Source: Candidatus Latescibacterota bacterium (GTDB lineage Bacteria; Latescibacterota; UBA2968; UBA8231). From it: a stretch of DNA of 64,000 bases. The notes under the pieces are model-generated. The model saw nothing but the letters and a program-made list of their open reading frames with translations, did not search any database and was not told where the DNA came from. The first letter of the stretch is position 1, and each line of letters opens with the position of its first letter. The position numbers and the translations under genes are program-made. Positions 920 through 54,854 of the stretch are shown here, in pieces. Location of the stretch: assembly GCA_965215195.1 (NCBI GenBank), contig CBDCDC010000002.1:1312001-1376000 (forward strand). Reading direction: 5' to 3'.

Positions 920-1051
920 TTACTGCGGTGGGGTCGCCGGTGGATCTGAGGAAGCCAATGGAACCAGAGCCATTCTCACACAGGCACATACTCCCTGCCA
1001 ATCGCGGCTCGACAGATGGCCGACACGCTCAGGATGGGTAGCAGGCGGCAG
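920..1051 (-). pseudogene. C-terminal remnant of a PemK/MazF-family toxin
   Basis: Startless frame LPPATHPERVGHLSSRDWQGVCACVRMAL...* overlapping the end of the upstream small ORF. It resembles the 'GxLsxxDw' C-terminal helix of MazF/PemK. Confidence 0.65.
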
Positions 1052-1259
1052 GCTCCTCTTCCTCCGGGTAGAGTTTCGCCGCATACTGTAAGGAGACGGA
1101 GGTCAAGTCGCTTTGGTCTTGTTCGCTCCAAGTGTCACTTCGGTCCACAACAACCACTTCGGACAACTCCTGTAAAATGAGTGCTGCGAGACGAAACTGC
1201 TCGCTCGGTGGTAAGGCACGCACGATGTCGGCGAAGACTTCTTGTGCGGTCGCAGTCAT
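1029..1259 (-). CDS. Small acidic protein, probable antitoxin of the deleted PemK/MazF toxin
   Basis: 76 aa with a GGAG RBS; LPPSEQFRLAALIL..DTWSEQDQSDL; lies directly upstream of the toxin remnant. Confidence 0.6.
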   Translation of the reverse strand: MTATAQEVFADIVRALPPSEQFRLAALILQELSEVVVVDRSDTWSEQDQSDLTSVSLQYAAKLYPEEEEPAACYPS

Positions 1260-1337
1260 GTTGACTTCTCCCAAAAGGCGTTTTTAGCGATCATTCGGTT
1301 ATCTGTTTCAGTCCTCTAAACTATGGGTAGCTTTGTT

Positions 1338-2357
1338 TTAGGCACCGGGACTGACTTCTTCTTCGGCCCTCTTTTGCAGGGCGCGCATGTACGCGAGTGT
1401 ATAGGCCGTGCCCAGCCGCCCGTCGTCGCCCATCTGCGGGATGTGATCCGGGATCAAGGTGCCGTCGTACCCGACTTGGGCCAGCGCACGCATGGCCTGA
1501 TACATGTCGAAGTACCCGTCATCGACAAAGGTCTCGACAAAGTGCGGCAGCGGCTTGTCGACGTTGCGGTAGTGGACCTTGAATATCTTGCCCTGCCCGC
1601 CGAAGTAGCGGATCGTCTCCACCACGTCGCGGCCCATGGCCTCGCCGCCCTCCAGCCAGCAGCCAATGCACAAGCACATCCCCACATTGGGGCTAGCGGC
1701 GATTTCGAGGGCGCGTTGGTACCCATCAAAGCTGCTGAAAATGGGCCGCGGCACCCCGCCCAACGGCACCCCGGGCGGGTCGTCCGGGTGAATGCCAATG
1801 CGGACGCCAGCCTCCTCGGCGACCGGCGCGACCTCCTTGGCAAAGGAGGCGAAGTTGTCCCACAGCTCTTCCTCGCTGTATTCGCGGCCGTGCGTCAGCC
1901 CCGCGCCGGTAAAACCGCCGCCGGAAGCCTCGGGGAGCCGCGCCATGTCAAAGGCCCGCGCCCTAGCGCCGCCCCGGGTCTGCTCCGGCGGCGTACTCCA
2001 CACGCTGTTGGCCATGTGCGCGTATGTCGTATAGGGAATGTCGGCTTGGCCCAAGTTGCGGAGGTGCGCCTTGTACTCTTCTACTTTCTCGTCGCGATTG
2101 GGCAGGTTGAGGGTGATCGCATCCACGTTGTGGACGCTGCTATTGCCCAAGCCGTAGAGCTGGATGCGGCCGCGGGCAAAGTGCTCTCGCCGGCTGCGAT
2201 AGTACTCGGGGCTGGCCTTGGCCGGATCGACCCAAGTCACTGCGTATTCTACGCCCATTTGCCGCACCAAGGCCATTTCCTCCTCGCTCGGCTCCGGGGA
2301 CATCTGGGCCGCGACCTTGAGGCCGGGCGCTAGTTCAATGTGGCTTTTGACGGCCAT
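1338..2357 (-). CDS. uxuA: Mannonate dehydratase
   Basis: NRDEKVEEYK, PVAEEAGVRIGIHPDDPP, HYRNV, FVETFVDDG, IPDHIP motifs. Confidence 0.85.
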   Translation of the reverse strand: MAVKSHIELAPGLKVAAQMSPEPSEEEMALVRQMGVEYAVTWVDPAKASPEYYRSRREHFARGRIQLYGLGNSSVHNVDAITLNLPNRDEKVEEYKAHLRNLGQADIPYTTYAHMANSVWSTPPEQTRGGARARAFDMARLPEASGGGFTGAGLTHGREYSEEELWDNFASFAKEVAPVAEEAGVRIGIHPDDPPGVPLGGVPRPIFSSFDGYQRALEIAASPNVGMCLCIGCWLEGGEAMGRDVVETIRYFGGQGKIFKVHYRNVDKPLPHFVETFVDDGYFDMYQAMRALAQVGYDGTLIPDHIPQMGDDGRLGTAYTLAYMRALQKRAEEEVSPGA

Positions 2358-2510
2358 GGCGATCTTCCTTGCGGCCCCATACTGAGGCCGGACTGTACGT
2401 TGCAAAGGGCAAAAGTGGGATTGCGCGGGAGCAATCTAAGGCCAATTTTGACGTATGTCTAATTGAACTAATTCACCCGGCCCCGGCCCGCTTACAAAGG
2501 CGAACCACCC

Positions 2511-2747
2511 ATGCAGCAACCCCCCGATCCCGTGCAGGGAATCGTAGCCGAGCTATCGAAGCGGTTAGACAGCATCGAGACCAACCAGCGCGAGAACATC
2601 CAAGCGTTACAGCAGGACATCGCCCGCATCGAGAGCCACCAACGCGAGGACATCGCCGAGACTCACCGTCGCATTGACCGCTTAACCCGCTGGATTATCG
2701 GCATCCAGCTTACAACGCCGATTGCGTTAGGCACCCTGCCGGGCTAA
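2511..2747 (+). CDS. Small coiled-coil protein with a C-terminal hydrophobic segment (DUF1640/CCDC90-like)
   Basis: Repeated IExxQRExI units followed by RIDRLTRWIIGIQLTT. Confidence 0.55.
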   Translation: MQQPPDPVQGIVAELSKRLDSIETNQRENIQALQQDIARIESHQREDIAETHRRIDRLTRWIIGIQLTTPIALGTLPG

Positions 2748-2784
2748 CTCATTGTAGGGGCGCAATTATGCACGGTTATCTACC

Positions 2785-3561
2785 ATGCCCATCGTCACCC
2801 TGACGACGGATTTCGGCTGGGGCGATTACTATGTCGGCGCGATGAAGGGGGTCATCTTGGGCATCGCACCCGAGGCCCAGCTCGTGGATATCTCGCACCA
2901 AATTCCACCCCAAGACGTGCTCGCCGCGGCCTTTGTCCTGCGCCACGCCGCATGCGAATTCCCGCCCGGCACCGTTCACCTAGCCGTTGTCGATCCCGGC
3001 GTAGGCACCCAGCGCCGCCCCCTCGCCCTCCACAGCAGCGGCCACTTGTGGGTGGGGCCGGACAACGGCCTCTTCAGCTTCGTCCTCAACCGCGCCGACA
3101 GCCGGGTACACGAAATTGCTCGGCGCGACCTCGGTCGGCCCGATCCGAGCAGCACCTTCCACGGCCGCGACCTCTTCGCGCCGCTGGCCGCCCACCTCGG
3201 TCGCGGCTTGGACCTCGCCTCGGTCGGCCCGGCAGTGGCCGATCCAGTGCGCTTGGCCGAGTCCGCACCTCGCAAATCGGCTAACCGCATCGCCGGGCAC
3301 GTCATCCACATCGACGGCTTTGGCAACTTGGTGACCAACATTGCGGCCGCCGAAATTGCGCCGTGGGGTCCGGCGCTGTGCATCCGCCTCGGCGCACACG
3401 TGCTCACCCAGCTTTGCCGCACGTACGCGGACGTCGAGCCGGGCGCACCCCTCGCCTTGATCGGCAGCACTGGTCTGCTGGAAGTTGCGGTCAATCGCGG
3501 CCATGCTGCCCGCCAACTCGGCGTACAACGCCGCGCCCCTCTTATCGTCGAAAAGCTCTGA
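2785..3561 (+). CDS. SAM hydroxide adenosyltransferase (DUF62, fluorinase/chlorinase superfamily)
   Basis: TLTTDFG, VVDPGVGTQRR, GPDNG, STFHGRDLFAP, HIDGFGNLVTN. Confidence 0.9.
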   Translation: MPIVTLTTDFGWGDYYVGAMKGVILGIAPEAQLVDISHQIPPQDVLAAAFVLRHAACEFPPGTVHLAVVDPGVGTQRRPLALHSSGHLWVGPDNGLFSFVLNRADSRVHEIARRDLGRPDPSSTFHGRDLFAPLAAHLGRGLDLASVGPAVADPVRLAESAPRKSANRIAGHVIHIDGFGNLVTNIAAAEIAPWGPALCIRLGAHVLTQLCRTYADVEPGAPLALIGSTGLLEVAVNRGHAARQLGVQRRAPLIVEKL

Positions 3562-3574
3562 GAAAGAGAAAATT

Positions 3575-4945
3575 ATGTCTAGTGCTCCGCTCATCGTCAG
3601 CATTTCCGGGATTCGCGGCCTCGTGGGCCAGTCGCTCACCGACGAGGTCGTCGCCGGCTTTGCCGCGGCCTTTGGCACCACCTTGACGCCGGGGGACATC
3701 GTCGTCCTCGCCCGCGACACGCGCCCGTCTGGCGCGTCCTTTGCCCAAGCTGCGGCCGCTGCGCTGCGCCAGACGGGCTGCCGCGTCGTCGATTTGGGCA
3801 TGTGCTCTACGCCTGGGGCCAAGCTGATGGTCGTCGAGCTGGGAGCCCAAGGTGCTATCATCATCACCGCCAGCCACAACCCGGCCGAGTGGAACGGCCT
3901 CAAGTTGGTGCGTGCCGACGGCGTCTTCCTCAATGCAGAAGAGGGCGCGCACGTCGCGGCTCTCTTCCACGCGGGCCAATTTCGCTGGGCCGCGTCCGGC
4001 GCGGCTTCGACGTTGAGCGCAGCCGAAACCCTAAAAACAGTGGTGGCGCACCACGTCCAGCAGATTGTGGCCTATGTCGATGCCGACGCCATTCGCCGGG
4101 CTAAGTTCAAGGTGGCCGTTGATCCCTGCAATGGCACGGGGGCCTTGTTGGTTCCAAGTCTGCTGGACGCCTTGGGCGTCAAAGCGGTCCTCATCAACGC
4201 CCGGCCCGACGGCGATTTCGCCCACGACCCAGAGCCGGTGCCCGCCAACCTCGTCCAGCTCGGCCAAGCCGTGCGCGACCAAGGCTGCGCCATCGGCTTT
4301 GCCATCGACCCGGACGCCGACCGCGTCGCGTTGGTCGATTCGAGCGGTGCGCCCGTAGGCGAAGACTACACGCTCGCGCTTGCGGTGCAAGCGGCGGCGG
4401 CCCGGCGGCCCGGCCCGGTCGTCACCACCCTCTCCACCTCGCAGGCCGTTACAGATGCGGCCGCGGCCCACAACTGCCCGGTCTTGCTCACGGCGGTCGG
4501 CGAGGTAAACGTGGTGGAGAAGATGATGGCCGAGCGAGCCGTCATCGGTGGCGAGGGCAACGGCGGCGTCATCGTCACGCAAATCGGCCCCAGCCGCGAC
4601 GCAGCCGTTGGCTTGGCCCTAGTGTTAGAGGCTATGGCACGCAGCGGCCAATCCCTTGCAGAACGGGTCGCCGCGCTGCCCAGCTATGCCATCGACAAGC
4701 GCAAAATCACTTGCACCCCAGAGCAGCTAGCCGCCGCCATTGCCGCGCTGCGCGACCGCTACCCCCAAGCATATATTCACCCGGTGCGCGATGGTTCCAA
4801 GCTCTACTTGAGCGGACGGCTCGAATGCCCTTGGATCCACCTCCGCGCCTCCAACACCGAACCCATTGTCCGCGTCATCGCCGAAAGCGCGAGGGCCGCG
4901 GAAGCCGCCCTGCTCTGCGACGAGGTAGAAAGGTTGTTTACGTAG
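3575..4945 (+). CDS. Phosphoglucosamine mutase / phosphomannomutase family
   Basis: ITASHNP, DPDADR, GGEGNGG, RASNTEP motifs. Confidence 0.9.
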   Translation: MSSAPLIVSISGIRGLVGQSLTDEVVAGFAAAFGTTLTPGDIVVLARDTRPSGASFAQAAAAALRQTGCRVVDLGMCSTPGAKLMVVELGAQGAIIITASHNPAEWNGLKLVRADGVFLNAEEGAHVAALFHAGQFRWAASGAASTLSAAETLKTVVAHHVQQIVAYVDADAIRRAKFKVAVDPCNGTGALLVPSLLDALGVKAVLINARPDGDFAHDPEPVPANLVQLGQAVRDQGCAIGFAIDPDADRVALVDSSGAPVGEDYTLALAVQAAAARRPGPVVTTLSTSQAVTDAAAAHNCPVLLTAVGEVNVVEKMMAERAVIGGEGNGGVIVTQIGPSRDAAVGLALVLEAMARSGQSLAERVAALPSYAIDKRKITCTPEQLAAAIAALRDRYPQAYIHPVRDGSKLYLSGRLECPWIHLRASNTEPIVRVIAESARAAEAALLCDEVERLFT

Positions 4946-4993
4946 CTATCGTAGGGGCGTTGGTAATGCGCTGGCATACAAGTTGAGAACAGG

Positions 4994-5022
4994 GTTGACC
5001 ATATAAGTAAACATGATACATT
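4994..5022 (+). promoter_or_regulatory. Sigma70-like promoter overlapped by a palindromic operator, upstream of the HTH-methylase
   Basis: TTGACC-16bp-TACATT with an extended TG; GTTGAC-N7-GTAAAC inverted repeat at 4994-5012. Confidence 0.5.
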
Positions 5023-5039
5023 ATCCTCAATTCCCACCT

Positions 5040-6308
5040 ATGGAGAACGTCCGCATGGTTCAGTTTGGGGATCACCTGAAGGCGGCTCGCCTCAAAAGCG
5101 GATTGACCCAAGCCGATGTAGCAAAGCACCTTGGGGTTTCGAAAGGGTACATCTCCCGCCTCGAAAGCGGCAAGGCCCGACCTGCCCAAGCTACAGTCCA
5201 ACGCTTAGCCGAACTCTGCGCGACCGATCCTGATCCGCTCCTCATCTCGGCCGATTACCTGCCCTCCGACCTTCGAGAAATTCTATCGCAGCATCCCGCC
5301 GAGGCATCGGCGGTTCTACGCGGCACCTTTGGGCGTACCACTCACCCGCAAAATGCTCCTCCCGCTGTCGCCGAGTCCCAAGTCCTCTACCAGCCTAGCG
5401 AAGCCTCATATCAGCTCGTCCAAGAGGATTGCTTCGCGTGGATGGAGCATGGCCCCCCCAACAGTGTCCACGCCATCGTCACCGACCCCCCTTACGGCCT
5501 AAAAGAGTACACCACCCAAGAAAAGGACAAACTCCGGCGCGGACGGGGCGGCGTCTGGCGCATCCCCCCAGCTTTAGACGGCTGCGTCCGCCAGCCCCTG
5601 CCTCGGTTTACCGTCCTCAGCAACGGCGACAAGCAGCAGCTTGCTGCATTTTTTAGACAATGGGGCGAGCGGGCCTTGCGAGTGCTCGTGCCGGGGGGGC
5701 ACGTTTTTATTGCCACCAACCCCTTGCTGTCGCACTTGGTCTATGCGGCCCTCGTCGAAAGCGGCTTTGAGAAGCGCGGCGAGATCATCCGCCTAGTACA
5801 GACGCTGCGGGGTGGCGACCGCCCCAAAAATGCACACGACGAATTTGCGGACGTCACCGTCATGCCCCGCTCAGGCTGGGAACCTTGGGGCCTGTTTCGC
5901 AAGCCATGCGAAGGCCGCGTACAGGACAATCTGCGCGAGTGGAAGACGGGCGGACTGAGGCGGATTAGTGCCGAGCGCCCTTTCGGCGACGTCATCCGCA
6001 GTGCGCCCACCCGACCGACAGAACGCGCCATCGCCCCGCATCCCTCGCTCAAGCCGCAGCACTTTATGCGTCAGATCGTGCGTGCGGCCCTGCCGCTGGG
6101 CGAGGGGATCGTGCTCGACCCGTTCATGGGCGGGGGTTCGACTATCGCCGCCGCGTGTGCAGTGGGTTATGAGAGCATTGGCATTGAGAGCGATCCCGCG
6201 TTTTTCGCGATCGCAAAAGCCGCCATTCCGCAATTGGCCACGCTGGAGGTCAACGGAGAGAGCAAGCCGGCACCGACAGCCAACCGCCGCGCCGAATGGA
6301 CGACTTAA
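5040..6308 (+). CDS. XRE-HTH fused to a beta-class amino (N6A/N4C) DNA methyltransferase
   Basis: N-terminal LKAARLKSGLTQADVAKHLGVSKGYISRLESG; IVTDPPY; HPSLKP; VLDPFMGGGST. Confidence 0.9.
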   Translation: MENVRMVQFGDHLKAARLKSGLTQADVAKHLGVSKGYISRLESGKARPAQATVQRLAELCATDPDPLLISADYLPSDLREILSQHPAEASAVLRGTFGRTTHPQNAPPAVAESQVLYQPSEASYQLVQEDCFAWMEHGPPNSVHAIVTDPPYGLKEYTTQEKDKLRRGRGGVWRIPPALDGCVRQPLPRFTVLSNGDKQQLAAFFRQWGERALRVLVPGGHVFIATNPLLSHLVYAALVESGFEKRGEIIRLVQTLRGGDRPKNAHDEFADVTVMPRSGWEPWGLFRKPCEGRVQDNLREWKTGGLRRISAERPFGDVIRSAPTRPTERAIAPHPSLKPQHFMRQIVRAALPLGEGIVLDPFMGGGSTIAAACAVGYESIGIESDPAFFAIAKAAIPQLATLEVNGESKPAPTANRRAEWTT

Positions 6309-6615
6309 TTTCGATACCCTCGTCGCCCTTTAACACTAAATTCGATGCGTAATGGCCTTTCGGTAGTAGGTCGGGATTGGCCTCCAGCGTTTCAGCAGCG
6401 CGGGCGATATTTTTTACGAGAAACTCGGAGATCATGCCGGACAGAGAGTTGCCCAGCAGTAATTCCTCCAATGGACGGAAGCCGCTGTTTTCGAGAAAGT
6501 CGTTCAACCCGTGAAAAAGCCGGTACGTCTCCGCCACCGCCTGTTCTATTTCTTTGACTTTGAGCGCGTAGGGAAGGACGACGTAGCGGGGATCGAGTTT
6601 GGTCGGCCGCGACAT
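6250..6615 (-). pseudogene. Truncated PD-(D/E)xK restriction endonuclease, convergent with the methylase
   Basis: PDLLP...EGIEIKSS catalytic-like motif. The ORF stops about 17 aa later and its tail overlaps the methylase 3' end. Confidence 0.6.
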
Positions 6616-6624
6616 AGCTCAGGG

Positions 6625-7131
6625 TCAGCCAGCGGCGACAATATCCCCGTAGGAGCCTTTGACGAGCTGGTCGCTGGTGATTTCCAAGGCCCGCATCAGG
6701 GCCTCAACGCGCTGGTGCGACTCCTCGATGCCCTTTTCTTCGGTAACGGCCTCTAGCTCAACGAACTGGCCGAGGCCCTTTACGTCGTCAAGGTGGATGC
6801 GCACGTTTTCCCACAGCCAGACTTGGCGCGTCTTCTCCACCTCAACCAAGATGCCGTGAATGTTGCTGAGGATGTTGCGCAGGCCCTCGGGGTCTTCGGT
6901 CTTGGCAATCTCGTAGTCGCTGCGCTTGGGGCCGGCTAGGTCCTCGCGCTGGTAGAAAATCAGATGGCCTTCGTCAGTCCCCAACTCGCGCAGCTTGAGC
7001 CGCCCGGGGTCGATGTTGAAATAGGTGTCCTTCTGGTGGAAGGTCCCGGCCAGCCCCGCGCCGAGGGCGTTGAGGTTTTCTTCGGCGCGCTCGACGTCTT
7101 GGTAGTGAGCCTTGATCTCGATATTGGTCAT
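6625..7131 (-). CDS. cyaB: CYTH domain / class IV adenylate cyclase
   Basis: NIEIKA, QKDTYF, RLKLRE, VEKTR, IHLDDVKGLGQFVELE. Confidence 0.85.
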   Translation of the reverse strand: MTNIEIKAHYQDVERAEENLNALGAGLAGTFHQKDTYFNIDPGRLKLRELGTDEGHLIFYQREDLAGPKRSDYEIAKTEDPEGLRNILSNIHGILVEVEKTRQVWLWENVRIHLDDVKGLGQFVELEAVTEEKGIEESHQRVEALMRALEITSDQLVKGSYGDIVAAG

Positions 7132-7205
7132 GTCGGATGCGTTTGGTTGAATTGCGATGCGATTGATTAAAAGTATAATGAAAGTATAAGATACCCCCAA
7201 TGCGG

Positions 7206-8620
7206 CTACCCTCTGATGAGCATTTCCGAGCGTTTGCTTTTTGACGACGGCACCTTCCCAGACGCCACCTCCTCAATGCGGCTGACCACCTCCTCGGCAT
7301 CGAAGACATGGTCGACGCGGCCGTCCATCCGGCCGTCTGGACCCACCAAAAAATAGGAGGGTATGCCCCGAACTTGGTACAACTGAGCCACGGCCGCCTG
7401 CCTGCCGCCTCGGGCGTGGACGTGGACGCCGGTCAGGCCGTGTTTATCGACCGCTTGGTGCCACTCGTCGGCGGGGTCCAAAGAGATGTTCAAAAAGACC
7501 ACCTGCTGGTCTCGGGTCCGCTGTTTGATCTCTTCTAGATAGGGTACTGCCTCAATGCAAGGGCCGCACCAACTCGCCCAAAAGTCCAAGAAAACTGCCT
7601 GACCTTTGAAATCGCGCAGGGAGACGCTTTGGCCTTGGAGATCGTCGAGGGTGAAGTCGGGCGCGGGCTGGCCGGGTTTGAGCTTGGATGCTTGTCGCAC
7701 GACTTCCTCGACGACCTCGGTGTATGCGGGATAGGGGTTGTCCTGGAGGAATTCGGTTAGGCGTTGTTCACCTTGGTCAAAACGGCCCTGTTGGAAGTCG
7801 TCGATGATTTCCCCGGCAAGAAAGAAGTACAGGACTTTGCCGTGCAAGAGCCGCTTGGCCAGGGGATAGATGATATGGTGTGGGGTTGGATACCGTCTCG
7901 GCGTTGCTCCTCGGATAGTTGCTCCCGTTCGGCTCGCTCCTCGGCTTCGTCTTCTATACGCCAGAAATTGCGCTCCAGAAAGGTGCGGTAATCGAATGTG
8001 CCGATAGCCGCTTCGTCAACCAGTTCAACTTGATCGAGGGCATCGTGATAGTCCGCGGGGAGGTCGTCATTCCTGTTTCCATTGGCGAACATGTAGTCAG
8101 TGGGATAGGAGACCACGAGATTGGCCCATTCATAGGTGATTTCAGCGCGGTAGTGGGCGATAAAGCCCGGGGTGAGTTGGTACTGGCTGCATCCCTCGTC
8201 CAGAAAGCGAGTCATTTCCAAGCGTCGCTGGTCGATCATTTTGAGAAAGACATCAACCTCCAAGTCTTTGTAGTCGATGCGCAGGTAATCGGGGAAGCGG
8301 GACCGCAGGGCGGCGAGGAACTGATTGTTGGCCGCGCCCCGGCCGGAAAAGTGGAGGGACTGGGGATCGAGCAAGTCCGCGTCAATGTGCAATTGGTCGC
8401 CCGGTTCCAAGAAGAGCTTGATCTCGCGCTGGGGGCCGACCGAAACCATTTGCGCTTCCGTAAACGGCAGTTCCACTGCGAGGCAACCCTTTTCGTCGAG
8501 AGGGACTTCGACGGTGACGGGCGTATGGTAGATGGGCGTTTGCTGGTAGTCGAAGGCGATGCTGCGGAGTTCCAACGCATTGGCTAGCGCGGCGGTGACG
8601 CGGGTGGCAAGCGAGGGCAT
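7206..8620 (-). pseudogene. TlpA/AhpC-TSA thiol-disulfide oxidoreductase, split by a frameshift near 7895
   Basis: The C-terminal ORF carries APDFTL..FLDFWASWCGPC. The N-terminal ORF joins it with a one-base shift (...RRRRYPTPHHIIYPLAKRLLHGKVLYF). Confidence 0.7.
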
Positions 8621-12315: not shown

Positions 12316-13134
12316 ATGCAATCCCTCTTAACTCACTACTCCATCCGCCCCAAGAAAAATCGCGGCCAAAATTTTCTCACCGACACTGCCGTCCTGCGCC
12401 GAGAAGTGGCTTGCGCCGACATCACGGCCGGCGATACAGTGCTGGAGATCGGGGCCGGAATCGGCAATCTGACGCAGTTGCTGCTGGAGCGAGCCGGGCG
12501 GGTCGTGGCGGTGGAGCAAGACCGCCAGTTCGCCCGCTGCCTCAAGGAATTGCAGCGGCGGTACGGGCACCTTGAAGTGGTGTGGGGCGATGCGTTGAGC
12601 GTGGATTTTCCGCGCTTTGACAAGGCGGTGGCCAACCTGCCGTATCAAGTGGCCCTGCCGATTGTGTTCAAGCTGCTAAACCAGCGATTCGAGTGGGCCG
12701 TGCTCATGCTGCCCAAGCGGCTGGCCCAGCGGCTGTGCGCCACCGTCGGGCAAAAAGGCTACTGTCGGCTAGGAGTCGCCGTTGGGCGGCTGGCCCAAGT
12801 AGAGTGGATCGAGCAGGTGGGCAAAGACGCCTTTTTCCCCCGCCCCAAAGTCGAGAGCGCACTCGTGCTCGTCAAACGCACCAAGCCCAAGTTCGCCGTG
12901 CCGTCCGAAGATTTCTTTAGGCAGGTCTTGGAAAATCTCTTTGCCCGCCGCCAAGAGCAAGTCCAGCAGATCGTACCCACAGCCACCCTCGCCGGTCTAA
13001 GCAAGAAGATCAAAAATAAACCTGTGTACACCGTCACGCCGCGTGAGTTCGGCGAAATCACCCGCGTCTTGTGGGCGAGGAATTCGCAATTTCGCTCAGT
13101 ACACGACCTCTCCTGTGGGTGCGTTCGCGCCTGA
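12316..13134 (+). CDS. rsmA: 16S rRNA m6(2)A1518/1519 dimethyltransferase
   Basis: GQNFL, VLEIGAGIGNLT, VANLPYQ, FFPRPKVES. The stop codon lies inside the downstream MITE. Confidence 0.85.
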   Translation: MQSLLTHYSIRPKKNRGQNFLTDTAVLRREVACADITAGDTVLEIGAGIGNLTQLLLERAGRVVAVEQDRQFARCLKELQRRYGHLEVVWGDALSVDFPRFDKAVANLPYQVALPIVFKLLNQRFEWAVLMLPKRLAQRLCATVGQKGYCRLGVAVGRLAQVEWIEQVGKDAFFPRPKVESALVLVKRTKPKFAVPSEDFFRQVLENLFARRQEQVQQIVPTATLAGLSKKIKNKPVYTVTPREFGEITRVLWARNSQFRSVHDLSCGCVRA

Positions 13135-13220
13135 CGGTAGGACGCCGTTGAATGCGAAATAACCTTCTGTTGGCCGGCAAGCTGCCCGCGCACCCGGCGG
13201 AAACCTTCGCGTCGTGTACT
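13098..13220. mobile_element. MITE-like element A (123 bp)
   Basis: Perfect 10-bp terminal inverted repeats AGTACACGAC / GTCGTGTACT in a CTCAG / CTAAG context; no transposase. Confidence 0.65.
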
Positions 13221-13222
13221 AA

Positions 13223-13390
13223 GAAGCTGTCTGAAAACTAGGGTTTCGCTCTCGGCCTTGACTCCAAGCCGCTGGCATCAAGGGCGTCTCGCCCGCGAAA
13301 AACGCCGGACGCCGAGGCCGCTGGACCGCCTTGCAAAGCAGCCCGACAGGGGTTTGTCACGCCTAAAGGCGCGGTGAAGCAGACGGCTTC
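13223..13390. mobile_element. MITE-like element B (168 bp), IS5-like ends
   Basis: TIRs GAAGCTGTCTG / CAGACGGCTTC (10 of 11 match), with TAA on both sides as a putative target-site duplication. Confidence 0.7.
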
Positions 13391-13416
13391 TAAGGAAATT
13401 TCGCAATTCCCAATTC

Positions 13417-14352
13417 TCAATGCGCCAAAAACCGCTCGGCCTCAATTGCCGCCATACACCCGGTGCCGGCCGCGGTGACGGCTTGTCGGTACACCGAGTC
13501 CTGCACGTCGCCGCAGGCAAAAACCCCGGGGATGGCGGTGGCGGTCGAATCCGGCTCGGTGCGGATGTAGCCCTGCTCGTTCATGGCCAACGCGCCGTTG
13601 AAAAGCTCGGAGTTGGGCACGTGGCCGATGGCGACGAAGACGCCGTCGCAGGGGAATTCTCGCGTCCGGCTGGTGTGGGTGTCGCGCAGCAGCACCCCGC
13701 GCACGGCTAGCTCGCCATCGGCTTGCAAAATCTCGGCGATTGTGGCGTTGACCGCGAAGTCGATCTTGTCGTTGTCCTGGGCGCGCTTGAGCATGATTTT
13801 GGAGGCGCGAAACTCCTCGCGGCGGTGGACGATGGTGACCTTGGAGGCGAATTTCGTCAGGTAGGTCCCTTCCTCCATGGCCGAGTCGCCGCCGCCGACG
13901 ACGACTAGCTCCTTGTCGCGAAAGAAAAAGCCGTCGCAGGTGGCGCAGGCCGAGACTCCGTGCCCCATGAGCCGCGCCTCGGACTCTAGGCCGAGGAGGC
14001 GCGCCGACGCGCCAGTGGCGATGATCAGCGCATCGCAGGTGTAGGAGGAGGCGTCGCCTTTGACTGCAAAGGGCCGCTTGGACAAATCGACTGCGGCGAC
14101 CGTCTCGAACTGGCACACGGCACCAAAACGCTGTGCCTGCTGGCGCATCAGATCGACCAGTTCGGGTCCCATGATGCCGTCGGGGAAGCCTGGGTAGTTT
14201 TCTACGTCCGTGGTAATGGTTAGCTGGCCGCCCGGCTGCAAGCCCTCTAGGACGAGCGGGGCTAGGTCGGCTCTGGCCGCGTACAGGGCGGCGGTCAGCC
14301 CGGCCGGCCCCGAGCCGACGATTACTACCTTGTAGTGGTGATTCGCGCTCAT
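13417..14352 (-). CDS. trxB: Thioredoxin-disulfide reductase
   Basis: [34 protein letters not shown]. Confidence 0.97.
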
Positions 14353-15364: not shown

Positions 15365-15616
15365 CTAAGCTCCAAATAGCTGTTGACGCAACTCAGATTG
15401 GCTGATTTCCAGATACGCGGCAACCCTCGATAAAATCACGTGCAACGTGCCAACTTTTAGCTGGCTATGCCGCGGGATTGATACGTGATGTTCCGGCCCT
15501 TTTATGCTGGTAACTAGCCGTATATGGCTACCCCTCTGCCGGACGACCCGATACGCATAGCGACGATGCAGTAGCCGGATCAGTTCATCACCGGATATAT
15601 CCCTCGGCATCATCAC
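15365..15616 (-). CDS. hicA: HicA-family toxin
   Basis: RQRGSHIRL...HHVSIPRH..LKVGTLHVIL. Confidence 0.9.
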   Translation of the reverse strand: MMMPRDISGDELIRLLHRRYAYRVVRQRGSHIRLVTSIKGPEHHVSIPRHSQLKVGTLHVILSRVAAYLEISQSELRQQLFGA

Positions 15617-15828
15617 ACTGCAACGACCTCGTCCTTTACCAGATGCAGTCTAAAAGTCCCGGGTACTGAATCTCCATCGAAATGGCACAGCACAGCGTCT
15701 TGAGCCATTAGCTTCAGGTCTTCCCACGAGTCAGCTTGGGTAATGATGTCGCATCCGACTGCCGCGGCATAGTAGCCGCCTTCCTCAGCTTCGTGGACTT
15801 CAAAAACTATTTCGTTTGGCATAGTCAA
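15613..15828 (-). CDS. Short HicB-like antitoxin
   Basis: EIVFEVHEAEEGGYYA..IITQADSWEDLK; overlaps the hicA start. Confidence 0.8.
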   Translation of the reverse strand: MTMPNEIVFEVHEAEEGGYYAAAVGCDIITQADSWEDLKLMAQDAVLCHFDGDSVPGTFRLHLVKDEVVAV

Positions 15829-22352: not shown

Positions 22353-23315
22353 ATGTTTGGCTTAGATATCAAAGTAGCGGAAGAATTTGACGGCGAGGAA
22401 CATGTAGTAATTTTTCATGGAGACTGCATGGATTTGCTCAAGTCCATCCCAGATAATTCAATCCAGTTAGTTGTTACATCGCCTCCGTACAACATAGGCA
22501 AGGAATACGAAAAAAGACTTGATATTGAGACCTACGTAAAACAACAAAGAGAAGTAATAAAGGAATGCGTCCGCATTCTCTCCAACTCTGGCAGTATCTG
22601 TTGGCAAGTGGGCAACTACGTAAACAATGGCTCAATTATCCCTCTCGATACCATTCTCTTTCCTATATTTCAAGAGCAAAATCTCGTTATGAGAAATAGG
22701 ATTGTTTGGCACTTTGAACATGGTCTTCACTGTTCGAGAAGATTTTCCGGGCGTTACGAAACAATAAATTGGTTTACAAAAAAAACAAAAAATTACGTCT
22801 TTAATCTCGACCCTGTACGGGTTCCACAGAAATACCCGGCAAAGAAGTATTTTAGAGGCCCCAAAGCTGGACAGTACTCTTGTAATCCATTGGGAAAGAA
22901 TCCGGGCGACATTTGGGACGTGCCAAATGTTAAAAGCAATCACGTAGAAAAAACCCAACATCCTTGCCAGTATCCAGTTGAATTGATTGAGCGCCTTGTT
23001 TTATCAATGACTAATGAGAATGACTGGGTATTCGATCCGTTCCTTGGGACAGGCACCTCCATTATTGCAGCTATAAAAAACGGTCGCCGAGGTGTTGGAG
23101 CAGAGACAGAAGATAAGTACGTCAAGATCGCCCGCGATAGGGTGCAAAGCGCAATAAACGGAACGTTAAAAACAAGACCAATGAATAAACCTAAATACGA
23201 TCCTGCGGCAAAAAAGAATAAATTAGCCGTGTCGCCTTGGGACCAGAAAGAGAGAAAATCCGATCAGTTGACTTTAATAAAAAAAGAAAAGAGGAGCCGC
23301 CGTGAAGATAATTGA
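22353..23315 (+). CDS. Beta-class amino DNA methyltransferase (probable N4-cytosine, BstYI/BglII-type system)
   Basis: VVTSPPYN, HPCQYP, VFDPFLGTGTS; markedly AT-rich relative to its neighbours. Confidence 0.92.
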   Translation: MFGLDIKVAEEFDGEEHVVIFHGDCMDLLKSIPDNSIQLVVTSPPYNIGKEYEKRLDIETYVKQQREVIKECVRILSNSGSICWQVGNYVNNGSIIPLDTILFPIFQEQNLVMRNRIVWHFEHGLHCSRRFSGRYETINWFTKKTKNYVFNLDPVRVPQKYPAKKYFRGPKAGQYSCNPLGKNPGDIWDVPNVKSNHVEKTQHPCQYPVELIERLVLSMTNENDWVFDPFLGTGTSIIAAIKNGRRGVGAETEDKYVKIARDRVQSAINGTLKTRPMNKPKYDPAAKKNKLAVSPWDQKERKSDQLTLIKKEKRSRREDN

Positions 23316-23433
23316 GAAGTACTCTCATCTAAACGGACTTGAATATCTACTCGTTCATCACCCTGACCTTTGGAAAGAAATAGAGGAGGTCGTTGAGCAA
23401 GTGATGTGCCAACGGTTCCTCTGGTCATCATAG
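23302..23433 (+). pseudogene. N-terminal remnant of a BstYI/BglII-family restriction endonuclease
   Basis: GAGGAG RBS, GTG start: MKIIEKYSHLNGLEYLLVHHPDLWKEIEEVVEQV, then a stop at codon 44. It closely resembles the BstYI N-terminus as I recall it (YSHLNGLEY). Confidence 0.8.
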
Positions 23434-23459
23434 GCATAGAGGAGTGAGGAGAAACTGAC

Positions 23460-23729
23460 GTGCCGTATATCAATTACACTCCTAGCGAGATCGAATTGCA
23501 GGGCGAAGCTATTTATGGGCGACAGATACGTGACAAAGTTGAGTTTGCGCACAAAGGCAAGTTTTTAGTTATCGATATCGAAACAGGTGAATACGAAATT
23601 GACGCCGACGATTTGGTAGCTACGAAACGCCTGCTTGTCAAGTATCCCAACGCCGTCGTCTATGGTTTGCGGATCGGATTTCCAACTGCCTATCGAATAG
23701 GCGCATACTTTTCGGTGGAGACGCGATGA
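23460..23729 (+). CDS. Small hypothetical protein (DUF5678-like), partner of the aspartic protease
   Basis: GEAIY..KGKFLVIDIETGEYEID..YGLRIG; ATGA overlap with the next gene. Confidence 0.7.
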   Translation: MPYINYTPSEIELQGEAIYGRQIRDKVEFAHKGKFLVIDIETGEYEIDADDLVATKRLLVKYPNAVVYGLRIGFPTAYRIGAYFSVETR

Positions 23730-24097
23730 TCAACGGAAAAGTTACGGCCAATAGAGAAGCTGTCATCGAATTAGATGTTATTGGATCAAACCAAAAAAGA
23801 GAAAAAATTGAGGCAGTGATAGACACAGGCTTTGATGGCTACCTGACGTTACCGAGCAACTTGAGCAGTCGCCTTGAACTCCAATTAGCTGGAAATCGCC
23901 GTGCAACTCTCGGAGATGGAAATGTAGTAGTACTGGATGCGTGTTTTGCAAAAACATTATGGCATGGACAAGAACGCGAAGTACTCGTTCTGCAATCCGG
24001 TAGTGTACCTTTGGTTGGTATGTCTTTACTTTACGGAAATCGACTGATATTGGATGTCATCAACGACGGCGATGTCGCCATTGAGCCTCTACCATAA
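23726..24097 (+). CDS. Clan AA (retropepsin-like) aspartic protease
   Basis: AVIDTGFDGYLTLP, LGDG, PLVGMSLL. Confidence 0.85.
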   Translation: MINGKVTANREAVIELDVIGSNQKREKIEAVIDTGFDGYLTLPSNLSSRLELQLAGNRRATLGDGNVVVLDACFAKTLWHGQEREVLVLQSGSVPLVGMSLLYGNRLILDVINDGDVAIEPLP

Positions 24098-49743: not shown

Positions 49744-49752
49744 CGCATTCCC

Positions 49753-50478: not shown

Positions 50479-52142
50479 GCGTCGTCTTCCTCAGCTACAA
50501 CACCCGCGACCTGACCCGACAGGCCCTGAGCGCGGTGCTCGCAGCAGCCGAGGGCCTAGAGGTGGAGATATTCGTCGTCGACAATGCCTCGGCCGACGGC
50601 AGCGCCGACATGGTGGCCGAGGAGTTTCCAGAAGTGGAGCTCATTTGCAACGCGGCCAACGTGGGTTTCGCGGCCGGCAACAACGTGGCCCTGCGGCAGG
50701 TGGCCGGAGAATACGCGCTGCTGATCAACACCGATACCATTGTGCGCCGAGACGCGCTGCGCACGATGGTAGAATTCTTGGACGCGCACCCACAAGCCGG
50801 GGCCTGCGGGTGCAAAATCCTCGACCCGGACGGCACTTTGCAGCTCGACAGCCGCCGCGGCTTCCCCACGCCCTTGGCTGCTTTCTGCAAGATGTCGGGC
50901 CTGAGCCGCCTCTTTCCCAAGCATCCACTCATCGCCCGCTACCACATGACGTATCTCGACCCTGAGCAAACGGCTGAGGTCGAGGTGCTGTCTGGTTCCT
51001 GCATGATGGTGCGAAAGGCGGCCATGGACCAAGTGGGTCTGCTCGACGAGTCCTACTTCATGTACGGCGAGGACATCGACTGGTGCTATCGCTTCCACCA
51101 AGCCGGCTGGAAGATCTACTACGTGCCGACGACCGCGATCATCCACTTCCGCGGCGAGAGCGGCCGGGGGACGCCCCTGAAAATTCTCTATCGCAAGAGC
51201 CAAGCCATGTCGATTTTTGTCGACAAGCACATGGCGCGGCGCTATCGCTTCTTTCCGCTGTGGCTTTTGCAGGTGGGCATTGCCCTGCACGGGACGTTCC
51301 GCTTCCTCGCTCGGGCGGGCCGCGCCTTGGCCATGCCCCTGATCGACGCCGGCTTGGTGCTCTGCGGCCTGAAGTTAGGTTTAGCAGTGCGCTACCACCC
51401 AGAGCTGGTGCCCTTCATCTACCGCATTGAGCAGGTCGGCAACCTCTTCGGCCTCGACGTCCAGCCGACGCGCTGGCTGGTCCCGCCTCCGTACTCGGAT
51501 TTGCAATGGGCCGTCGTGTACGGTGCTTCAACCTTAATCTGGCTGTTGGCGTTTTACGTGTCGGGCCTGTACGACCGCCGCCGCTACTCTGTGGCGTGGT
51601 CGGTGGTGGGCGTGACGCTGGGGTTTGCCTTCATCGTGACGCTGGTGTTCTTCTTTAAGGCATACAACTTCTCGCGGCTGGCTGCGGTCGCGGCTTGGTT
51701 TTGCAACGCAGTGTTAATCGCCGGTTGGCGCTTCGCCGGGCGTTGGTTCCTGCACCAGCGCGGCCGCGAGGGCCGATTGCGCACCCTGCTGGTGGGAACC
51801 GATGCGGTCGCAGTGGATTTCGTCGAGCAGCTAGAGCGGGCGGGCGTGGCCCACTACAACCTGATCGGCGTGGTGGGAGAGGCTCCTCAGCCGCGGGTCC
51901 GCGCCCTGGCCGGTCGCCCGCTAGTCGGTCACGTCGGCCAGCTAGAGGAGCTGGTGCGCGACTTTGCCATCGACCACCTCGTGTTCACCCCGAGTGCCAT
52001 GGGGTCGTTCTTGGAGCAGCCAGTGCGGTCGCGGGATTTGCGCGTTAGCATGGTGCCGGTCGCGTTTGCCGAAATGGTTGCCGACCGCGGCGTACGCGAC
52101 TCTGCGCCCCTGCCTCTCGTGGAAATTAGGACGGGCCGTTGA
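50469..52142 (+). CDS. GT2 glycosyltransferase fused to membrane and CoA-binding-like domains
   Basis: VVDNASADGS, GFAAGNN, YFMYGEDIDWC, TM block, RTLLVG. Confidence 0.85.
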   Translation: MRLSVVFLSYNTRDLTRQALSAVLAAAEGLEVEIFVVDNASADGSADMVAEEFPEVELICNAANVGFAAGNNVALRQVAGEYALLINTDTIVRRDALRTMVEFLDAHPQAGACGCKILDPDGTLQLDSRRGFPTPLAAFCKMSGLSRLFPKHPLIARYHMTYLDPEQTAEVEVLSGSCMMVRKAAMDQVGLLDESYFMYGEDIDWCYRFHQAGWKIYYVPTTAIIHFRGESGRGTPLKILYRKSQAMSIFVDKHMARRYRFFPLWLLQVGIALHGTFRFLARAGRALAMPLIDAGLVLCGLKLGLAVRYHPELVPFIYRIEQVGNLFGLDVQPTRWLVPPPYSDLQWAVVYGASTLIWLLAFYVSGLYDRRRYSVAWSVVGVTLGFAFIVTLVFFFKAYNFSRLAAVAAWFCNAVLIAGWRFAGRWFLHQRGREGRLRTLLVGTDAVAVDFVEQLERAGVAHYNLIGVVGEAPQPRVRALAGRPLVGHVGQLEELVRDFAIDHLVFTPSAMGSFLEQPVRSRDLRVSMVPVAFAEMVADRGVRDSAPLPLVEIRTGR

Positions 52143-52211
52143 GGGGGGCAGTGTTGATTTTTTGCCTTTATTTACGTATTGTGAACGCGAGCATACGCTG
52201 GGAGAATAACT

Positions 52212-52913
52212 ATGTCTGAGAGGCGTTTGGCAGGCGGTCGGGAGATCGTGCTGCCGATGAGTAAAGCAGTGGAAATTAGTTTTCGCAGCCTGAAAATTCG
52301 CTTTGGCCGCTCGCTGATCACCACCAGCGGCGTGATTTTGGCCATTGCCTTTTTAATGTCGGTGTGGAGCAACAACGAAATCGTCACCAGCCTGCGGAGC
52401 GCGGACAAAAGCGAGATCAACTTGCTGTTGCAAAAAAACGGCATTGAGACCGGCATCACCGAAGCCGGCGACGCTTCCGCAGAGGCTGCGGGCCGCATAC
52501 AGGAAGAGCGATCCAAGCAGACTTGGCTCATCAGTCTCTCGCTCTTGGTCTGCGTCGTCGGCATTGCCAACGCCATGTTGATGTCGGTGACCGAGCGATT
52601 CCGCGAGATCGGCACTATGAAGTGCCTCGGGGCCTTGGACACCTTTATCGTCAAGCTCTTCCTTCTCGAATCGACCTTTCAGGGGTTGGCGGGGACTTCG
52701 GCGGGGATCGTCATTGGCTTCGCCCTGACGCTGGGCTTGGCCCTGCTCGACTACGGCGGCTACGCGCTCACTTATTTCCCGCTGGGCGGCATCGCCGAAT
52801 CGGCCGGGTACGCCTTGGTGGTGGGGACCCTGCTTTCGCTGATTGGTGCTATGTTGCCGGCGTACCGCGCGGCCAAGATGGAGCCGGTCGAGGCCATGCG
52901 CTCGGACACTTGA
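52212..52913 (+). CDS. FtsX/MacB-like ABC permease (short)
   Basis: GIANAMLMSVTERFREIGTMKCLGA, PAYRAAKMEPVEAMR. Confidence 0.88.
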   Translation: MSERRLAGGREIVLPMSKAVEISFRSLKIRFGRSLITTSGVILAIAFLMSVWSNNEIVTSLRSADKSEINLLLQKNGIETGITEAGDASAEAAGRIQEERSKQTWLISLSLLVCVVGIANAMLMSVTERFREIGTMKCLGALDTFIVKLFLLESTFQGLAGTSAGIVIGFALTLGLALLDYGGYALTYFPLGGIAESAGYALVVGTLLSLIGAMLPAYRAAKMEPVEAMRSDT

Positions 52914-52934
52914 TTTCTTAGAGGAGATTCTGCA

Positions 52935-53705
52935 ATGACCGAAACCGCCCCAAGCGAGATCGCTGTCCAAGAAGCGGAAAAACGCACTGTAGTACGGACC
53001 CAGCAGGTAAAGAAAATTTACTTGATGGGCGAGATTGAGGTTCACGCCCTGCGCGGGGTCGACATGGAGATCTACACCGGCGAGTACCTGTCGATCATGG
53101 GGCCTTCGGGCTCGGGCAAGAGCACCTTCTTCAACATGGTCGGCGGCCTCGACAAGCCCTCGGAGGGCAAGGTGTACATCGACGAAGTAGACGTCGCCCA
53201 GCTCGACGCGTATGAACTGGCTTGGCTGCGCTGCCGCAAGATCGGCTACATCTTCCAGTCGTTCAACTTGATCCCGGTGATGACCGCGCTCGAAAACGTC
53301 ACCTTGCCGATGGTCTTCGCCGGCCTGACCAGCGACGAAGCCCGCGACAAGGGCATGGAGCTATTGGTCAAGGTGGGCCTTGGCGAGCGGCACTCGCACA
53401 AGCCGTACGAGCTTTCGGGCGGCCAGCAGCAGCGCGTGGCCGTCGCCCGCGCCCTCGCCAACGACCCGGCCGTGGTCCTCGCCGACGAGCCGACCGGGAA
53501 TCTGGACCTGCGCACGGGCACCGAAATCATCGAATTGCTCAAAGAGATGAACGAGAATTCCGGCGTGACCGTCATCTCAGCGACCCACGACCACAAGATG
53601 CTCAGCGTCTCCGACCGCGTGGTGTGGGTCAAGGACGGCCAAGTCGATCACGTGCGCAAACGCGAAGATCTCGATATCGAAGTAACCCACGTAGAAGGCG
53701 AGTAG
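52935..53705 (+). CDS. LolD/MacB-like ABC ATP-binding protein
   Basis: GPSGSGKS, LSGGQQQR, ADEPTGNLD. Confidence 0.95.
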   Translation: MTETAPSEIAVQEAEKRTVVRTQQVKKIYLMGEIEVHALRGVDMEIYTGEYLSIMGPSGSGKSTFFNMVGGLDKPSEGKVYIDEVDVAQLDAYELAWLRCRKIGYIFQSFNLIPVMTALENVTLPMVFAGLTSDEARDKGMELLVKVGLGERHSHKPYELSGGQQQRVAVARALANDPAVVLADEPTGNLDLRTGTEIIELLKEMNENSGVTVISATHDHKMLSVSDRVVWVKDGQVDHVRKREDLDIEVTHVEGE

Positions 53706-54490
53706 TGCTGCCAGCCTACCCAACCGCCTTTTGGGTCTGCGCGGTGGGGGCAGTGCTCTTGATGGGGGTGGCCAAGGCCGGCTTTGGCGGCGGCATTGGG
53801 ATTTTGGCCACCCCGCTTTTGGCACTGACGGTTTCGGTGGCCGACGCGGCGGCCCTGTTGCTGCCGCTGTTGATCGCCTGCGATGTGTTCGCCGTCCGCC
53901 ACTACCGCCGCACCTTCGACAAAACGAGCGTCCAACGGCTCCTGCCCGGTTCCGCCTTGGGGATCGGCGCCGGGGCCTTTTTTTTTGGCTACTTCAGCCA
54001 GCACGAGCGCGTCTTGGAGATAGGCTTGGGCTGCTTGGCCTTGCTGTTTGTCGCTTTCCAATTCGGGCGGGCGGCGATTGTCGGGGCCGTGCGGAAGCAG
54101 CATCCGGGGCCGCTCGCCGGCGTACTGATGGGCGCGGCCTCGGGCTTCACCTCAACGCTTGCCCACGCCGGGGCCCCGCCGGTGGTCATCTACTTGCTGC
54201 CGCAGCAGCTTCCACGCCACGTCTTCGTCGGCACCACGGTCATCTTCTTCGCCGCGCTCAACTTGCTCAAACTGCCGCCCTATTGGGGCTTGGGGCTTTT
54301 TCACGCCGACATTTTTAAGACGACTTTGCTACTGGCTCCGCTGGCGTACATCGGGGTGCGGTTGGGCGTGTTTTTGCTCCAGCGATTTAGCGATGTGTGG
54401 TTTAATAGGATAGTGTACGGGATGTTGCTGGCGACGGCGGTGCAGTTGATTACTGGAAGCAATCTGCTGGAGGGGATGGTCCGGGGGTGA
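53705..54490 (+). CDS. Sulfite exporter TauE/SafE family protein
   Basis: GVAKAGFGGG, GFTSTLAHAGAPP, FFAALNLLKL. Confidence 0.88.
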   Translation: MLPAYPTAFWVCAVGAVLLMGVAKAGFGGGIGILATPLLALTVSVADAAALLLPLLIACDVFAVRHYRRTFDKTSVQRLLPGSALGIGAGAFFFGYFSQHERVLEIGLGCLALLFVAFQFGRAAIVGAVRKQHPGPLAGVLMGAASGFTSTLAHAGAPPVVIYLLPQQLPRHVFVGTTVIFFAALNLLKLPPYWGLGLFHADIFKTTLLLAPLAYIGVRLGVFLLQRFSDVWFNRIVYGMLLATAVQLITGSNLLEGMVRG

Positions 54491-54528
54491 TAGACCTTGC
54501 GCCTCAAAGTCGTGGCGCACGGACCGTT

Positions 54529-54620
54529 TCAGGGTGTCCGTAGTTCCCTTATTGCATTTATTACATCAACGGCTTCGCCCGGCGCGACGATGGGTATTTA
54601 GTGTCTAGGACGACTCTCAT
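54529..54620 (-). pseudogene. Internally deleted PIN-domain toxin
   Basis: An ATG directly after the antitoxin stop gives MRVVLDT, the canonical PIN start. It joins out of frame to IPIVAPGEAVDVINAIREL, a PIN-like C-terminus. Confidence 0.75.
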
Positions 54621-54854
54621 CTAGGCTCGGCGGAGCTGGTGGACAATACGGGAGATTTCTTCGAGCGAGGGCTGAGTAGAATCCGCTACGGCAGCGGCTC
54701 GGTCGAGCAGGTCGGATGAATTCTCTGCAAAAGCGACGACCTTAAACAGCGGCTTAGATCGCTTGACGACGACGATTTCGCGCCATTGCTCCAAGTGTTC
54801 GGCAATGCGCGGCAATTGCTGGCGAAATTCCTTTGCGCTCAAGTATTTAGCCAT
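54621..54854 (-). CDS. Phd/YefM-family antitoxin
   Basis: LSAKEFRQQLPRI..EIVVVKRSKPLFKVV; GGAG RBS. Confidence 0.75.
   Translation of the reverse strand: MAKYLSAKEFRQQLPRIAEHLEQWREIVVVKRSKPLFKVVAFAENSSDLLDRAAAVADSTQPSLEEISRIVHQLRRA

Follow-up and report, generated by a model that had tools for sequence, protein, structure and literature searches.

Anti-addiction modules were reportedly described by Saavedra De Bast and colleagues in 2008, and work on ccdO157 by Mine and colleagues in 2009 is cited by Belot and colleagues in connection with two-step erosion. For restriction-modification systems, Seshasayee et al. (NAR 2012, PMC3424554) report 174 orphan methylases beside degraded nucleases versus 15 cases of the reverse arrangement. 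For type II toxin-antitoxin systems, the counts given in Belot et al. (Mol Biol Evol 2026, PMC13617665) are 185 pairs in which only the toxin is a pseudogene, 186 in which both genes are, and 8 in which only the antitoxin is, with the pseudogenes being mostly truncations, and that paper proposes a "two-step decay" in which the toxin is lost first. Orphan antitoxins are also discussed as possible anti-addiction modules in PMC7192599. Toxin-first decay is already published for both restriction-modification and toxin-antitoxin systems, and here it is seen in a new lineage. In a 64-kb stretch of a Candidatus Latescibacterota genome (G000:C2:1312001-1376000; called the window below), four selfish gene pairs, two of them toxin-antitoxin and two of them type II restriction-modification, have probably been caught midway in this usual toxin-first decay, at sites that are hotspots of gene turnover.

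We translated the four remnant sites in all frames and queried up to 168 genomes of the phylum with either the retained partner or the remnant to find the orthologous loci. The reference for base-by-base comparison was G144, a member of the same genus that is syntenic with the entire window at ~80 to 96% nucleotide identity (86 to 92% over most blocks). The genus set comprises 31 genomes. Loci of three of the four systems were mostly found with the partner protein as the query, an approach under which loci lacking the partner would stay hidden, and two hotspots were re-surveyed from their housekeeping flanks to remove this bias.

Four remnants and their retained partners

A first-pass annotation, made from the letters of the window, had proposed four toxin or nuclease remnants, each beside an open partner gene, and all four are present. 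At each of the four sites, the orthologous position in relatives carries an intact gene, and this fixes the direction of change as a deletion in the window. The retained pieces of all four remnants are 88 to 100% identical to their orthologues, and alignment to the intact relatives bears out the proposal that each gene was lost by deletion rather than by point decay. When searched alone, the remnant fragments, which are too short, matched no Pfam family. Profile matches of the orthologues confirm the PemK/MazF, BglII-type, and PIN assignments made from the window, while the assignment of the second nuclease to the PD-(D/E)xK enzymes holds only as a putative one.

The MazF/PemK remnant (920..1084, minus strand) is an in-frame open reading frame (ORF) of 54 amino acids that joins the first 11 to the last 43 residues of the toxin across a 231-bp in-frame deletion, placed between 1054 and 1055 by DNA alignment with G144. 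The remnant protein reads MRRNSTRRKRS up to the junction, continues with LPPATHPERVGHLS, and ends in PPQ before the stop codon. In G144 (locus L002) and G119 (L003), the same frame is an intact 128-amino-acid ORF. The window remnant is 91% identical to residues 85 to 128 of the G144 orthologue, which matches PF02452 PemK_toxin at 35.2 bits (cut-off, 23.1) over profile positions 2 to 106 of 109. The retained gene beside it, AT1 (1029..1274, minus strand), encodes an 81-amino-acid antitoxin-like protein that has no match in Pfam or NCBIfam. AT1 lies upstream of and overlaps a PemK-family ORF in G144, G119, G082, and G092, and the overlap is present in the window too; this position suggests that AT1 is the antitoxin, and the family predicts that it would counter a putative MazF endoribonuclease activity. 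Because the MazF deletion begins within the overlap of the two genes, the end of AT1 has been rewritten, so that its last codons read EEEEPAACYPS in the window and EEEDIV in G144, each followed by the stop codon.

Across 22 loci of this family in two genera, the toxin is full length at 4, is reduced to at most 42 residues at 16, and is partial at 2 (broken in G131 and with a replaced C terminus in G088), and the deletions fall into at least six junction types within the genus. AT1 itself is broken at 4 of the 22 loci (G123b, G142, G086, and G090). We also found a fifth scar in the same genome, outside the window at C2:1003849-1004100, where AT1 lacks its first ~20 residues and MazF is reduced to a 27-amino-acid head. 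The toxin junction of this fifth scar is common to G144 and G125, so that this loss of the toxin is old. As a separate observation on AT1, the last ~40 residues from its C-terminal half (window 1029-1150) match inside open frames of >1,000 amino acids in other families of the same class (G083, G084, G078, G087, G089, G075, and G053) at 62 to 72% identity.

The second nuclease, R2, remains as a 121-amino-acid ORF (6250..6615, minus strand) that covers residues 1 to 113 of a putative type II restriction nuclease 213 residues long. Compared to G144, 319 bp are missing at 6270-6279, where 8 filler bases stand instead, and this loss takes the nuclease C terminus, the intergenic spacer, and the last codons of the convergent partner, M2, which are replaced through read-through over the deletion. 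Two smaller losses comprise 12 bp at ~6584 and 18 bp at ~6378, the latter encoding AKVGGH, which immediately precedes the invariant PD. M2 (5013..6308, plus strand) is a DNA methyltransferase fused to a helix-turn-helix (HTH) domain; it has DPPY and FxGxG motifs and matches PF01555 at 67 bits, plus HTH_31/HTH_3. Linkage of R2 to this DNA methyltransferase is constant, as the two genes are convergent in 12 of 12 genus copies. The 213-amino-acid R2 protein is whole in 10 of these 12, and the gene is deleted in the window and, differently, by an internal loss, in G139. M2 has decayed in relatives through a frame change at residue 228 (G131) and through loss of residues 1 to 126 (G139).

We found no Pfam, NCBIfam, or PDB sequence match for R2 (the PDB search returned chance matches only). 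The family has 1,515 homologues at E ≤ 1e-5, and the best 120 of these are 75 to 93% identical, under the source names Roseiflexus, Planctomycetes, Deltaproteobacteria, and Scalinduaceae. Residues P91, D92, E112, and K114 do not vary among the 25 aligned sequences and would make up the PD...(D/E)xK catalytic motif. A fold model of mediocre quality (mean predicted local distance difference test score [pLDDT], 66) gave no Foldseek match against the PDB at E ≤ 0.001. In VIA-align comparisons of this model, restriction enzymes filled 6 of the top 10 rows (NaeI, Z 5.5; BglI, 4.2; SwaI, 3.5; 3ndh, 3.5; SfiI, 3.3; and DpnI, 3.2), although these are weak matches, with Z values of 3.2 to 5.5 that all lie under the level at which the tool is reliable. 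R2 is thus best described as a putative type II restriction nuclease of the PD-(D/E)xK kind and represents a widespread 213-amino-acid family that is without a Pfam model. Next to this module, the 3' end of a CYTH-domain gene (window 6625-6740) has two copies in G144, one in place and the other upstream of M2, on the far side of a 1.7-kb segment found only in G144; this second copy resembles a duplication of the flank of the M2-R2 islet.

The third pair consists of M3 (22353..23315, plus strand), a beta-class methyltransferase with SPPY and FxGxG motifs that matches PF01555 at 195 bits, and its partner, the BglII-type nuclease R3. The R3 remnant (23302..23449, plus strand) has a head of 33 codons (23302-23400), which the first-pass annotation had recognized, and also a tail in another frame (23401-23449), which it had not. 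An internal deletion of 466 bp leaves only residues 1 to 33 and ~189 to 203 (the last ~15 codons) in the window copy, and the lost center includes the EVQFGKY stretch of intact copies. Intact 203-amino-acid R3 orthologues follow M3 in G125 and G138, and both match PF09195 Endonuc-BglII end to end, at 117 bits (that of G125, 117.3 bits over profile positions 3 to 163 of 163).

R3 is intact in only 2 of the 9 genus copies and deleted in the other 7. In the coordinates of G138, where the nuclease occupies 145-756, the missing stretch is ~246-717 in the window, 251-516 in G131, 177-684 in G133, and 528-591 in G136; G118 and G143 have lost sequence up to 695 from different left ends, and G130 has lost the entire gene. 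These losses represent at least five separate events, or breakpoint pairs, with possible nesting allowed for. The core of M3 is open in 8 of the 9 genomes, with a TAA at codon 51 in G130, and the deletions clip the tail of M3 in G143, G118, and G130.

The PIN remnant (54529..54620, minus strand) retains the first 7 codons (MRVVLDT) and, out of frame with them, the last 22 codons and the stop codon, with 349 bp missing compared to G144 at a junction between 54597 and 54598. Its partner, AT4 (54621..54854, minus strand), encodes a 77-amino-acid Phd/YefM-like antitoxin, which reaches only 18 bits against PF02604 Phd_YefM, below the cut-off of 29.8. AT4 lies directly upstream of an intact 146-amino-acid PIN gene in five relatives (G129, G144, G140, G123, and G093), and the PIN orthologue of G144 matches PF13470 at 57 bits (cut-off, 27) and TIGR00305 at 59 bits (cut-off, 29.15).

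Reality, age, and specificity of the deletions

The deletions are genuine and not artifacts of assembly, a possibility that the first-pass annotation had raised, since contigs from other public runs bridge the MazF and R2 junctions. In these comparisons, which covered window positions 700 to 7300, the MazF junction is spanned by contigs of runs X1, X5, and X7, from three studies, and the large R2 junction is bridged by a contig of run X8 with zero differences. Records 7 and 8 of X1 end at 6283 and begin at 6291, respectively, and so form no formal bridge of the R2 junction, and record 22 of X7 extends only 28 letters past it. A contig of run X5 that is ~97 to 99% identical to the window over the pieces compared carries both the 18-bp and the 12-bp pieces of R2 (the letters of the 12-bp piece are those of G144), as well as ~407 extra letters at the large junction. 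Thus, all three R2 deletions are absent from this contig, and the gene is undeleted there. The independent bridging of two junctions, together with an intact R2 in X5 at this level of identity, indicates that the deletions are real and young.

The codons that remain in the remnants also speak to their age. The ratio of nonsynonymous to synonymous substitution rates (dN/dS) of the retained R2 codons is 0.07 to 0.18 when the window is compared to intact copies and to the G139 copy, versus 0.14 for intact-type R2 (36 pairs, leaving out the window, G139, and G131). Likewise, the BglII-type remnants of G131 and G136 have values of 0.08 to 0.15, versus 0.09 for the intact pair. As the remnants have the same dN/dS as intact copies, the deletions must lie at the tips of the branches and be recent. 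The values for the partner genes are similarly low, with a dN/dS of ~0.06 for M3 over the full 36 pairs, 21 of which are between nuclease-less genomes, and of ~0.10 for M2 (0.09 to 0.14 versus relatives). Since the remnants are as constrained as the partners, a low dN/dS in a partner shows only that the loss was recent and not that selection continued after the toxin was gone. We therefore dropped partner dN/dS as a test of function, because dead remnants are equally low.

The deletions are also specific. Compared to G144, the window has three intragenic deletions of ≥200 bp, and all three are in toxin or nuclease genes, so that 3 of the 4 shared genes of this kind (MazF, R2, PIN, and HicA) are deleted versus 0 of ~45 other shared ORFs (hypergeometric P of ~2e-4 by our own arithmetic). 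The other large differences between the window and G144 concern whole ordinary genes, which encode a collagen-like/LamG protein, a membrane protein, and a leucine-rich-repeat protein. The deletions in the window are discrete, with sizes of 12 to 466 bp, and they spare the conserved core of the partner gene and trim only its tail (AT1 and M2 in the window and M3 in relatives). The first-pass annotation had suggested a search of the junctions for microhomology, and this search revealed no consistent mechanism: there is none at PIN, at most 1 base at MazF, 2 to 3 bases at the two small R2 deletions with the 8 filler bases at the large one, and an imperfect GTxGxTG at the BglII-type junction.

Turnover sites and intact modules

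Among the 30 genus genomes that have the anchor of the dihydrodipicolinate synthase (DHDPS)/aminotransferase site, upstream of the aminotransferase, 13 have DHDPS adjacent to the aminotransferase and are module-free, 8 carry M3 with or without the nuclease, 5 carry only a pair of genes encoding 89- and 123-amino-acid proteins, and 3 differ; the M3-R3 module of G125 is on a different contig from the aminotransferase site. Within these 30 genomes, we found no deletion of the M3 core and no nuclease without M3. At the TauE/aldo-keto-reductase site (window 54490-55492), downstream of TauE, for which 30 genus genomes also have the anchor, 13 are empty, 5 have AT4 and PIN (with PIN whole in 4 of these 5), 5 have RelB/ParE, and the rest differ. 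The window holds both the PIN/AT4 and the RelB/ParE modules at this site. We also found that in G144 a run of 6 bases stands in place of the window's 1.9-kb M3 islet and that contigs of X8 join 4940 to 6621, which is the site without the entire M2-R2 module. The absence of these islets from some relatives agrees with the earlier proposal of islet capture followed by toxin loss, and repeated toxin loss, also proposed, is seen in its recurrence across the genus at different breakpoints. The third-codon-position GC content (GC3) of M3 is 0.41, versus ~0.8 in the flanks, and this low value, together with the presence and absence of the gene among relatives, points to a horizontal origin.

The 89-amino-acid gene and its neighbor, a 123-amino-acid gene that resembles clan-AA aspartic proteases, occupy window positions 23460-24097 and form a two-gene islet of their own at the same hotspot as M3 and R3. 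The 123-amino-acid protein scores 53 bits against TIGR03698, which is below the cut-off. The pair is alone at this site in G135, G124, G134, G123, and G142, and it has been eroded in G130 and in G125, whose protease-like gene is missing residues 19 to 103. It behaves like a further toxin-antitoxin-like pair.

Two other modules are intact in the window. HicA (15365-15616) and a HicB-like gene (15613-15828) form a pair on the minus strand (15365..15828), with HicA matching PF07927, and a RelB/ParD-like antitoxin gene (54951-55229) and a ParE/RelE toxin gene (55213-55479; ParE_toxin, 54 bits) form a pair on the plus strand (54951..55479). Both had been thought to be possible recent arrivals. HicAB proves to be syntenic in G144, at 88 to 92% amino acid identity, and is therefore older than the split between the window and G144. 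It is also present in G139; HicA is intact in all three of these genomes and broken in G130 (reduced to residues 35 to 82, with stops) and in G136 (two pieces and a TAA). G144 lacks RelB/ParE; at the same site, G118, G124, G131, and G145 have the pair at 83 to 94% identity. This distribution is patchy and does not demonstrate a new arrival. Erosion has reached ParE alone in G145, where RelB is whole, and both genes in G131.

Elsewhere in the window, an rRNA adenine dimethylase gene (PF00398; 12314-13077) is inverted in place compared to G144, with colinear flanks, and the window has 342 extra bases at 13077-13419. A subtilase-like gene (59617-62867) appears to be split into the overlapping ORFs 59617-60687 and 60582-62867, which may be due to a frameshift; it is a paralogue of the 1,061-amino-acid gene at 56307-59492.

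Explanations and comparison with known systems

The deletions found here, with their polarity, recurrence, and youth, are followed in some relatives by decay of the partner gene. In the toxin-first decay that we propose, modules would be gained at hotspots between housekeeping genes, probably via recombination in the conserved flanks, and later lost. If the antidote is shorter-lived than the toxin or nuclease, cells would tolerate only those mutations that abolish the poison and spare the antidote, so that addiction, in the sense of post-segregational killing, would filter the deletions that persist. As the antidote must still be made, the scars would always have a broken toxin and a whole antidote. 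The inactivating mutations of this lineage are mostly deletions of 60 to 600 bp with little or no homology at the junctions, and the orphan antitoxin or methylase would then be free to decay or be deleted, which would leave an empty site.

Several points weigh against this account. Three R2 deletions within ~1 to 3% divergence from an intact carrier are more than simple neutral decay would lead one to expect, and this triple deletion may point to selection against R2. Of 7 genomes that lack the BglII-type nuclease, 6 have an open M3. At the locus of the old, shared MazF deletion, the two whole copies of AT1 (G144 and G125) differ by 6 synonymous and 6 nonsynonymous changes, which are fewer nonsynonymous changes than expected under neutrality (binomial P = 0.036) and may be a sign that an orphan has stayed under constraint; comparisons that involve the truncated copy at this locus fit neutrality. 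In addition, the partner-query search hides partner-less loci, and only two sites were surveyed free of that bias.

The idea that assembly errors, or short random ORFs with a chance resemblance to toxin fragments, account for the remnants deserves next to no credence. The fragments are indeed too short for a Pfam match, and minor intact variants in the source sample could escape notice in contigs, but every retained piece is 88 to 100% identical to its orthologue, junctions were assembled independently in other studies, and four different loci have the same pattern with syntenic intact references. A more serious alternative, although one that we think doubtful, is active disarmament, in which toxins and nucleases are costly (through self-restriction or spurious activation) and the deletions are positively selected, not merely tolerated. 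It would account for the confinement of all three ≥200-bp intragenic deletions to toxin and nuclease genes, with none in ~45 other ORFs, for the three hits on R2 at such low divergence, and for the recent and separate deletion of 7 of 9 BglII-type copies. However, the contrast with housekeeping genes is also expected if toxins are dispensable and the other genes are under purifying selection, and the intact copies have lasted long enough to diverge at a dN/dS of ~0.1, so they were not quickly purged.

The first-pass annotation had favored an immunity or anti-addiction repertoire, in which the orphans are kept by selection and neutralize incoming cognate modules, so that mobile elements cannot addict or kill the cell. 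Of that interpretation, the serial capture and toxin loss stand, and the repertoire is left unsupported; we consider it unlikely. Intact cognate modules do circulate in close relatives (R2 in run X5 and PIN, MazF, and BglII-type modules in genus members), and a search of the genome found that none of the four toxins has a close resident copy for which the orphans might otherwise be kept. The apparent constraint on AT1 at the old shared deletion and the open M3 of nuclease-less genomes point in the same direction, and the idea is published for both kinds of module in PMC7192599 and PMC3424554. Against these points, the low dN/dS of the partners is uninformative, as dead remnants have the same values, and the orphans do decay (M3 in G130, M2 in G131 and G139, and AT1 at 4 of 22 loci and in the second copy of this genome). 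AT4 has 4 nonsynonymous and 1 synonymous private changes in the window versus 1 and 11 in four toxin-bearing relatives (Fisher P = 0.01), which resembles relaxation, although the window residue matches that of the distant outgroup G093 at 2 of the 4 nonsynonymous sites; as the polarity is thus uncertain, we set this excess aside as a sign of relaxed constraint. A further idea is that, in a community with intact and disarmed module versions side by side at 97 to 99% identity, the orphans form a standing "vaccination" set under frequency-dependent selection against re-addiction by circulating cognate modules, with the unusually fast, multi-hit deletion of the nucleases as selection to disarm and not drift. 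We regard this idea as speculative and improbable. The combined evidence neither shows nor excludes a protective role for the orphans.

Read as toxin-first decay, the window is a clear case, resolved to the base, of the way in which addictive pairs are lost from an uncultivated lineage, with the poison lost first, by deletion, repeatedly, recently, and at a few hotspots. Within a single stretch of 64 kb, pairs of the toxin-antitoxin and the restriction-modification kinds can be treated as one evolutionary object. Current understanding is unchanged by this. The value is partly for annotation, since gene callers miss such scars and the "orphan" antitoxins and methylases here are best read as decay intermediates, and the matched natural alleles, intact and disarmed, could be used for direct anti-addiction tests.

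The closest described process is the erosion of type II toxin-antitoxin systems on chromosomes, as reported by Belot et al. (PMC13617665). There, too, the modules form tiny islets at sites of high turnover flanked by core genes, most toxin pseudogenes are truncated, loss of the toxin alone or of both genes is common and loss of the antitoxin alone is rare, and the losses are independent across a genus. In contrast to the systems described there, the present ones belong to a different, uncultivated lineage, their breakpoints are mapped to the base and are polymorphic between public runs, and two restriction-modification pairs undergo the same process alongside them. As in Seshasayee et al. (PMC3424554), a methylase with an intact core adjoins a degraded nuclease, a horizontal origin is indicated by low GC3 (in M3) and by variable presence among relatives, and fully degraded stages exist; degradation in that source is defined by sequence divergence, whereas here it consists of discrete young deletions in which the retained codons are still under-diverged. 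As for anti-addiction modules and protective solitary methylases, a chromosomal antidote without a working poison, such as those found here, could neutralize an incoming cognate module, but several orphans in relatives and in this genome are broken. Finally, the third pair resembles BglII/BstYI/BamHI-type systems in the end-to-end match of the relatives' intact nuclease to PF09195, in the SPPY and FxGxG motifs of the methylase, and in the usual tandem order of the two genes, methylase-nuclease; it differs from them in that the nuclease in the window is reduced to residues 1 to 33 and ~189 to 203.

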